NCBI GenBank assembly: GCA_964016885.1 | Contig: CAXHJY010001176.1 | Coordinates: forward strand, 1 to 24,306 | Direction: 5' to 3' | Length of the DNA stretch: 24,306 bases | Source of the DNA: Eledone cirrhosa | Lineage: Eukaryota | Part shown: positions 2,133 through 2,432 of the stretch, piece by piece | Layout of the letters: the number at the start of each line of letters is the position of its first letter | Numbering within the stretch: the first letter of the stretch is position 1 | Program-made: the position numbers and the translations under genes | The notes under the pieces: model-generated | The model's database searches: none | Seen by the model: the letters and a program-made list of their open reading frames with translations, nothing else | Told to the model about the DNA's origin: nothing

Positions 2133-2432
2133 AGGATTCTGTCGATCGATTGGTTGTTGATTAGGCGATACCCGCTGATGAAGCCGCATAAGCCGATTGT
2201 GCATTGTTGCCTAATATATGCAGACAGATAAGGCAGTGCACCCTACTGCTGCATTAGTGCGGCAGAAACTCGAGTCCGGGAACCTTATAGGCACCCGTTT
2301 TACGTGTGTTGTGTTGAAGCAAATAACTTTGTGTATACTCTGGTAATGTATCTTACATTGCCCATGGAGTGCGCTGAGATACAACCGGTACTGGCATTGA
2401 TAAATATGCTGGGTCCGTCAACCCTTATTAAA
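2133..2432 (+). mobile_element. Probable Penelope-like element pseudo-LTR fragment containing the hammerhead, ending in (TA)n
   Basis: Contains the minimal hammerhead. Such motifs are established hallmarks of Penelope-like element terminal repeats. No RT or GIY-YIG ORF is seen, so the assignment is inferred. Confidence 0.5.
2171..2280 (+). ncRNA. Type-I hammerhead ribozyme motif with long stem II
   Basis: Stem I CCCG(2171-74)/CGGG(2277-80), extendable by AGG/CCT; CTGATGA 2175-81; stem II GCCGCA-TAA...TTA-G-TGCGGC enclosing further pairings; GAAA 2265-68; palindromic stem III ACTCGAGT; canonical GTC triplet ending at 2276. Confidence 0.88.

Follow-up and report, generated by a model that had tools for sequence, protein, structure and literature searches.

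The window analysed here is a 24,306-nt stretch of AT-microsatellite-rich animal DNA from Eledone cirrhosa. Positions 2134–2430 hold a 5′-truncated copy of a repeat named family A (unit positions 550–846; + strand, as for all motif elements given below), 97% identical to the family consensus with nine differences. A (TA)n array (2431–2516, +) lies at its fixed 3′ end and is likely the insertion target. Pieces of another abundant repeat, partly fold-back around (TA)n, occupy 1833–2132, 19330–19500 and 21400–21530, and one of them directly borders the family A copy on its 5′ side. At 19500–21180, a ~720-bp unit is repeated in tandem ~2.3 times, as judged by eye, and a short degenerate match to a hammerhead-like core is found within another repeat at 14354–14380 (+).

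Inside the family A copy, a type I hammerhead core is intact at 2175–2276, with the core boxes, the A15.1–U16.1 pair and the NUH triplet all present, and none of the nine differences from the consensus falls in it. The CUGAnGA box (2175–2181) is followed by an extra A between positions 9 and 10.1 (2182), while a second extra nucleotide (2264; A here, and A, C or U in other families) precedes the GAAA box (2265–2268). The GUC triplet occupies 2274–2276, with a predicted cut 3′ of 2276. Three helices surround the core and are supported by covariation. The 5′ arm of stem I (2163–2174) contributes to a proximal helix of 4 bp (2171–2174/2277–2280) and a distal one of 3 bp (2163–2165/2283–2285), the latter being absent from a related subfamily, B. 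The stem II domain spans 81 nt (2183–2263) and is closed by a basal helix of 7 bp (2183–2189/2257–2263). Stem III is formed by an 8-nt palindrome (2268–2275), which gives only 2 bp in the monomer and is predicted to serve as a dimer interface (self-duplex −10.7 kcal/mol). A sequence-only reading of this DNA had proposed a complete core with a GUC site, a palindromic 8-nt stem III, a stem I with an internal loop and a structured stem II of ~80 nt. All four elements were recovered at these places, and the stem II domain covaries between subfamilies and between families.

The motif departs from canonical hammerheads in that the closing pair of stem II abuts neither core box. With one additional A at either end of stem II (2182 and 2264), the G10–C11 pair is separated from the core, and such extra nucleotides are present in all the families described below. 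The Rfam model Hammerhead_1 (RF00163) scores 13.9 bits against a gathering score of 34, with 83 nt taken as an insertion. Among the 150 matches listed out of 296 in an Rfam scan of the whole window, nearly all were microRNA models on microsatellites, and all were below gathering. No contact between loop I and loop II is evident in family A.

Family A is highly repeated in the genome. An initial DNA search gave 2,271 candidates, of which 40 were scored and proved 96–100% identical. An exact 19-mer spanning the cut site has 468 genome matches, hence at least 468 copies of the family. The repeat unit measures ~848 bp, and 25 full copies are 92–98% identical to their consensus. Its longest stop-free frame is 119 codons, with no reverse transcriptase (RT) or endonuclease ORF; frames of 106–119 codons running across the ribozyme found no support as a gene. 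A splice-donor-like site is putatively present at unit position 34. Thirty loci were then sampled in genome order from the 19-mer matches, two of them near-duplicates of each other. In 24 of these the copy ends at the same 3′ junction, beyond which (TA)n or a brief stretch of TTA begins. Eight copies are longer than one unit and two hold two ribozymes; none has two full units. When 30 loci were picked by the unit start, the 3′ part of another unit was found directly upstream in 22, the longest reaching ~1.4 units, and in none of the 30 did an upstream partial unit start at the cut site. Overall, family A is built like a non-autonomous Penelope-like element (PLE), with a partial-tandem arrangement (pLTR), a fixed 3′ end, variable 5′ truncation, (TA)n targets and no ORF. 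The window copy is an ordinary decaying insertion of it. The proposal that this locus carries the best hammerhead candidate is borne out as far as the motif is genuine and beyond chance; the motif is not specific to the locus, however, but belongs to a copy of a transposon. Family A and its sister subfamilies are also present in three contig runs of one sample, which has no bearing on expression.

Two subfamilies accompany family A: A2, and B, with 108 exact matches and a unit of ~888 bp that is ~70% identical to that of A. An alignment of 33 rows (14 A, 6 A2 and 12 B copies, a subset of those retrieved, plus the window copy) was used to examine the pairing. In this alignment, 94.7% of the cells of proximal stem I are paired, and the basal stem II helix shows a G–C to A–U double change between subfamilies (15 and 17 of the 33 rows). 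Inside stem II, a three-way junction is predicted with two hairpins: hairpin a (2196–2215; 97% of cells paired, one pair broken in the window copy) and hairpin b (2219–2253; 85% of cells paired, 5 of 15 pairs with double changes). The junction model as a whole pairs 91.7% of cells with seven double-changed pairs. The inner pairing of the sequence-only reading reaches 93.3% on fewer pairs, and one double change in the window copy keeps one of its pairs. Pairing counts cannot separate the two models; energies do. In the four subfamily consensuses, the junction is favoured by 14–21 kcal/mol, the alternative fold has a probability of 0.0 and the pairs of hairpin a have probabilities of 0.99–1.0. 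The junction also accounts for subfamily changes at positions that are unpaired in the other model. According to these folding models, the three-way junction is the preferred inner fold of family A, and the earlier pairing is not.

The window copy itself is less clear-cut. Its inner domain is weakened (−25.6 vs −36.1 kcal/mol), the pair probability of hairpin a drops to 0.48, hairpin b is damaged by changes at 2230–2232, and the two models come near parity, the earlier inner fold lying within 1.6 kcal/mol of the best one. The two inner complementarities originally put forward overlap at 2234–2235, so they cannot both form in full. The second of them (2208–2212/2231–2235) needs changes at 2211 and 2230–2232 that are private to the window copy, each of the two patterns having one genome match.

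The free fold of 2155–2295 is not a hammerhead (z −1.04), and in A, A2, B and the window copy alike, the hammerhead fold costs 8–11 kcal/mol relative to the free one. Segment 2289–2297 mimics the 5′ arm of stem I and competes for its 3′ arm, so that 2277–2297 comprises both this arm and a downstream fold-back segment; the resulting hairpin is calculated at −7.9 kcal/mol vs −6.4 kcal/mol for stem I. A competing hairpin of different sequence is present in A2 and B, and not clearly in other families. As the monomer fold is disfavoured, cleavage is predicted to be slow and likely dependent on a dimer or a protein. Catalysis may also suffer from the additional nucleotide ahead of the GAAA box. Given the cut-site scars described below, it is plausible that the family A ribozyme is still active; in the window copy the core is intact and the inner domain weakened.

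Relatives of this motif are widespread in the genome. With a pattern of core and spacing in which the palindrome was not fixed, 3,464 matches with a long stem II were found vs 54 in the reversed control. Intermediate lengths gave 357 matches vs 2, and a short stem II 3,200 vs 11. The retrieved loci define families C, D1, D2, E, F, G and S, and two single copies, G2 and H. Family S (L355–L374) corresponds to the 3,200 short-stem-II motifs; it has the same extra nucleotides, and its stem III is self-complementary with G–U pairs. A further subfamily of E, with ~2,400 copies, lies outside the earlier search patterns. Just upstream of the ribozymes of D1 and E, ORF remnants run in the same direction; family E also forms 529-bp tandems without ORF (L201–L205, C1 152.49 Mb). 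Scanning metagenomes with a similar pattern gave 79 distinct matches, none with both stem I and stem II of at least 4 bp, and these were dismissed as chance matches. Related cores on two metagenome contigs (L240 and L305) do have a palindrome and 6 bp in stem I, yet their basal stem II is limited to 2 bp.

Family C, which by eye makes up roughly half of the first 100 of the 3,464 matches, has a young autonomous member (L126:4338–6659, C1 82.55 Mb), in which family C repeats flank an intact ORF of 773 aa in tandem and inverted arrangement. A Pfam search with the 773-aa protein returned no significant family; its nearest Atlas clusters are HTH_animal/GIY-YIG proteins. It also contains what we take to be RT, GIY-YIG and cysteine motifs. 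Together, the Atlas neighbours, the arrangement and these presumed motifs suggest that the protein is that of a PLE. With linker cysteines and (TA)n targets of the kind that PMC8557442 describes, it would count as ‘Neptune-like’. Downstream of the ribozyme, family C ends at either of two 3′ positions, and its proximal stem I is almost absent; by eye, the 8 nt that follow the cut site are complementary to a segment inside stem II, a possible 8-bp alternative. No autonomous partner of family A emerged from the comparison: the A and B units gave no blastn match to the retrieved loci of C, D1, D2, E, F and G.

The architecture of the motif is maintained between families. In each family, stem II is flanked at either end by one extra nucleotide. 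The nine family consensuses all have a perfect stem III palindrome, with four different central sequences; a fifth centre occurs in the single copy G2, and the single copy H has no palindrome. The discovery patterns left the palindrome free, but the A, B, D1, D2 and F loci were fetched with palindrome-fixed patterns, so that per-copy palindrome counts are not evidence in these families. Bases at the centre of the palindrome can find a partner only in a second RNA molecule, an arrangement that speaks for the dimer model of PMC4209133. Across the consensuses, basal stem II has 4–10 bp, and proximal stem I has 4–5 bp in seven of nine, 1 bp in C and 2 bp in G; the stem II domain spans 49–88 nt in the long-arm families. 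When arms were swapped among seven lineages, the observed pairing was reached in 4 of 5,040 permutations for stem I and in 1 of 5,040 for stem II, the true order being counted in both cases. Stems I and II, like the palindrome, differ in sequence between families and keep their pairing. In D1, D2 and F, stem II is a rod in which 11 of 28 pairs are double-changed (26 rows), pair counts overstating the number of independent events since the copies are related. RNAalifold did not return this rod when unaided, nor stem I for A/A2/B. The stem II z-scores range from −3.4 to −6.7 in A, A2, B, C and G, and are moderate in D1 and E and weak in D2, F and the window copy. Consensus triplets are GUC, GUA and GUU only, a form demanded by the patterns, so that only subfamily-level changes count. 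A conserved stretch inside stem II of D1, D2 and F can instead pair with the first core box (alignment columns 17–21 and 74–78), a possible off-state.

Traces of cleavage were sought in the genome at the cut site. In family A, 5′ ends are not enriched there (1 of 15 matches vs ~1 expected), suggesting that most templates are uncut or rejoined. One of these 15 matches, L344 (C4:126.68 Mb), lies between TA arrays as a single insertion with two parts: a 263-bp stretch of family E that stops on its triplet, and family A from +1 to its normal 3′ end. Since the 3 nt preceding the site are identical in E and A, L344 could also result from a switch guided by homology together with one substitution. 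At L440 (1 of 22 matches), the end of the 5′ fragment is repeated twice at the cut site. L413 and probably L401 carry a 5-nt duplication ending on the triplet and may share one origin; both come from 30 places fetched out of 176 matches, which are mostly due to chance (control 754). For comparison, the background is 3 insertions of at least 3 nt in 52,389 aligned nt, which by our own estimate predicts fewer than 0.1 insertion per site if the clade comprises 1,000–1,500 copies.

In family S, 18 matches at the cut site comprise four untemplated insertions, one ambiguous insertion, two foreign joins, three deletions and eight double substitutions. Controls classed by eye contained no untemplated insertion among 54 matches at +3 and 10 at −3, with up to three short duplications and several deletions. 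The family E site gave 19 matches vs 8 in the reversed control, and four copies join unrelated sequence exactly at the site; its controls are weak, the one at +3 being swamped by a subfamily and the one at −3 not classable. Family C had zero two-base departures at its site, inserted A's being invisible to the pattern used. These scars are few and were found by patterns aimed at the cut site, and the numbers are small. Their position on the exact cut site suggests that such ribozymes likely cut in the animal. We read them as matching either template jumping with untemplated addition, which is known for non-LTR RTs (PMC8857657), or RNA ligation. A further-reaching reading, which we put forward tentatively, is that the clade with a folded arm of 50–90 nt and a nucleotide inserted at both ends of stem II cleaves in the germ line and that cut ends of different families are joined and retrotransposed, the sites acting as exchange points and the arm as an enzyme platform.

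Our preferred reading, with a probability of about 0.6, is that the motif is the hammerhead of a 5′-truncated, protein-free repeat, likely a non-autonomous PLE copied in trans, with cutting that is likely slow and aided by a predicted dimer or by a protein. Within it, the copy number, the lack of an ORF, the fixed 3′ end, the variable 5′ ends, the length of at most ~1.4 units and the pairing of stems I–III across families are direct observations. A partial-tandem copy of family A would be transcribed, and a PLE protein would nick (TA)n. Reverse transcription would then start inside the RNA, ~155 nt 3′ of the cut site. On the majority of templates, uncut or rejoined, the cDNA would run through the ribozyme. 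The scars would come from a minority of templates that are cut after 2276 and whose ends are then connected, either by the RT jumping between templates or by ligation of the RNA. As for the long stem II, it would likely be a folded platform for protein binding or folding control, and not part of catalysis.

Copies running once or twice through the cut site, with lengths of up to 1.4 units, could also stem from a retrozyme-type circle, in which tandem transcripts would be cut efficiently, the 848-nt monomer ligated and the circle reverse transcribed from a fixed site into copies of more than one unit. L344 fits the ligation of two cut RNAs, and circles of this kind have been proposed for PLEs (PMC4209133) and shown for smaller animal retrozymes (PMC7229834). 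We nevertheless hold this route to be rather unlikely, given that only 2 of the 30 sampled copies contain two ribozymes and none two full units, that the monomer fold is disfavoured and that the unit is about twice the size of the 170–400 nt circles reported in PMC7229834. Somewhat more doubtful is the idea that the motif no longer cleaves and that its fold is kept as a binding site of the PLE protein, the scars being DNA-level accidents or homology-guided template switches. The non-canonical extra nucleotide before the GAAA box and the competing hairpin would fit such a loss, and hammerhead mutants had no effect on insertion in vitro for an anole PLE (PMC11167929). Family C, almost without proximal stem I and without a two-base departure at its site, points the same way; since its young autonomous element spreads with a 1-bp proximal stem I, cleavage may be dispensable. 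Against this idea, stem I covaries in most families, the scars sit on the cut nucleotide in A, E and S, and the consensus triplets stay within the three forms named above, as far as subfamily-level changes can tell under patterns demanding that form.

The sequence-only reading saw instead a locus-specific ribozyme, with stem II folded as in the window copy and possibly serving as a ligand switch or cargo. The small energy gap of its inner fold and the one double change that keeps a pair speak for it. We consider it very improbable: the changes concerned are private to one genome copy, the fold vanishes in the four subfamily consensuses, and the window copy is truncated and lies amid microsatellites and other repeats. 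A cargo or switch domain also finds no support in the relatives, as 3,200 copies share the core layout with a stem II of 11 nt and have spread with it, so that mobility in general does not depend on a long arm.

The PLE-borne hammerhead that we favour resembles the minimal type I hammerheads of metazoan PLEs described by Cervera and de la Pena (2014, PMC4209133) in its type I topology, short helix I, extra nucleotide between 9 and 10.1, G10–C11 pair, palindromic helix III and location in flanking repeats, most copies being solitary and truncated. Unlike those, whose helix II has 6–8 bp and a small loop, it combines a 7-bp basal helix with domains of 49–88 nt (81 nt here), a second extra nucleotide before the GAAA box and, in the A clade, a three-way junction. 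Insertions in the hammerhead core and a U–U closing mismatch are reported in PMC3088659, and the two-sided layout of extra nucleotides was not seen in the available part of that source. PMC8557442 mentions ‘half cores’ of Naiad spaced 35–50 nt apart, which may be related. The same source describes the partial-tandem, microsatellite-targeting anatomy of PLEs, including non-autonomous derivatives. Like the latter and like retrozymes (PMC7229834), family A is a protein-free, ribozyme-bearing unit with head-to-tail partial repeats, and it coexists with autonomous PLEs, as in the systems of PMC8557442, PMC7229834 and bioRxiv 10.64898/2026.07.22.740005. The last of these reports units of up to 972 bp and retrozymes derived from PLE pLTRs. 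Unlike these elements, family A forms dispersed copies of at most ~1.4 units, not arrays, has a non-canonical ribozyme and is known here from genomic DNA. Non-LTR retrozymes are defined by abundant circular RNA and by tandem arrays of 150–450 bp units with a canonical type I hammerhead; from such arrays the 848-bp unit, the limit of ~1.4 units and the non-canonical motif set family A apart. With Poseidon of Anolis carolinensis (PMC11167929) it shares fixed 3′ ends downstream of the ribozyme, AT-rich targets and read-through templates. In contrast to family A, Poseidon is autonomous and yielded no detected reads that stop at its cut site, whereas genomic joins at the cut site are found here. 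Literature on PLE and cephalopod hammerheads, extended stem II and cut-site chimeras yielded no description of such motifs; supplements, Repbase and Lunse et al. 2017 may contain them.

PLE hammerheads cleave poorly in vitro (PMC4209133), and in the one reconstituted system insertion did not require them, nor did any reads stop at the site (PMC11167929). Joins found in genomic DNA at this position offer a DNA-only route to test cutting in vivo and the use of cut RNA as template. The families described here form a natural series in which one core layout is combined with a stem II of 11 to 88 nt, beside a young, intact autonomous element. As these families fall below the Rfam threshold, standard scans would miss thousands of such motifs.
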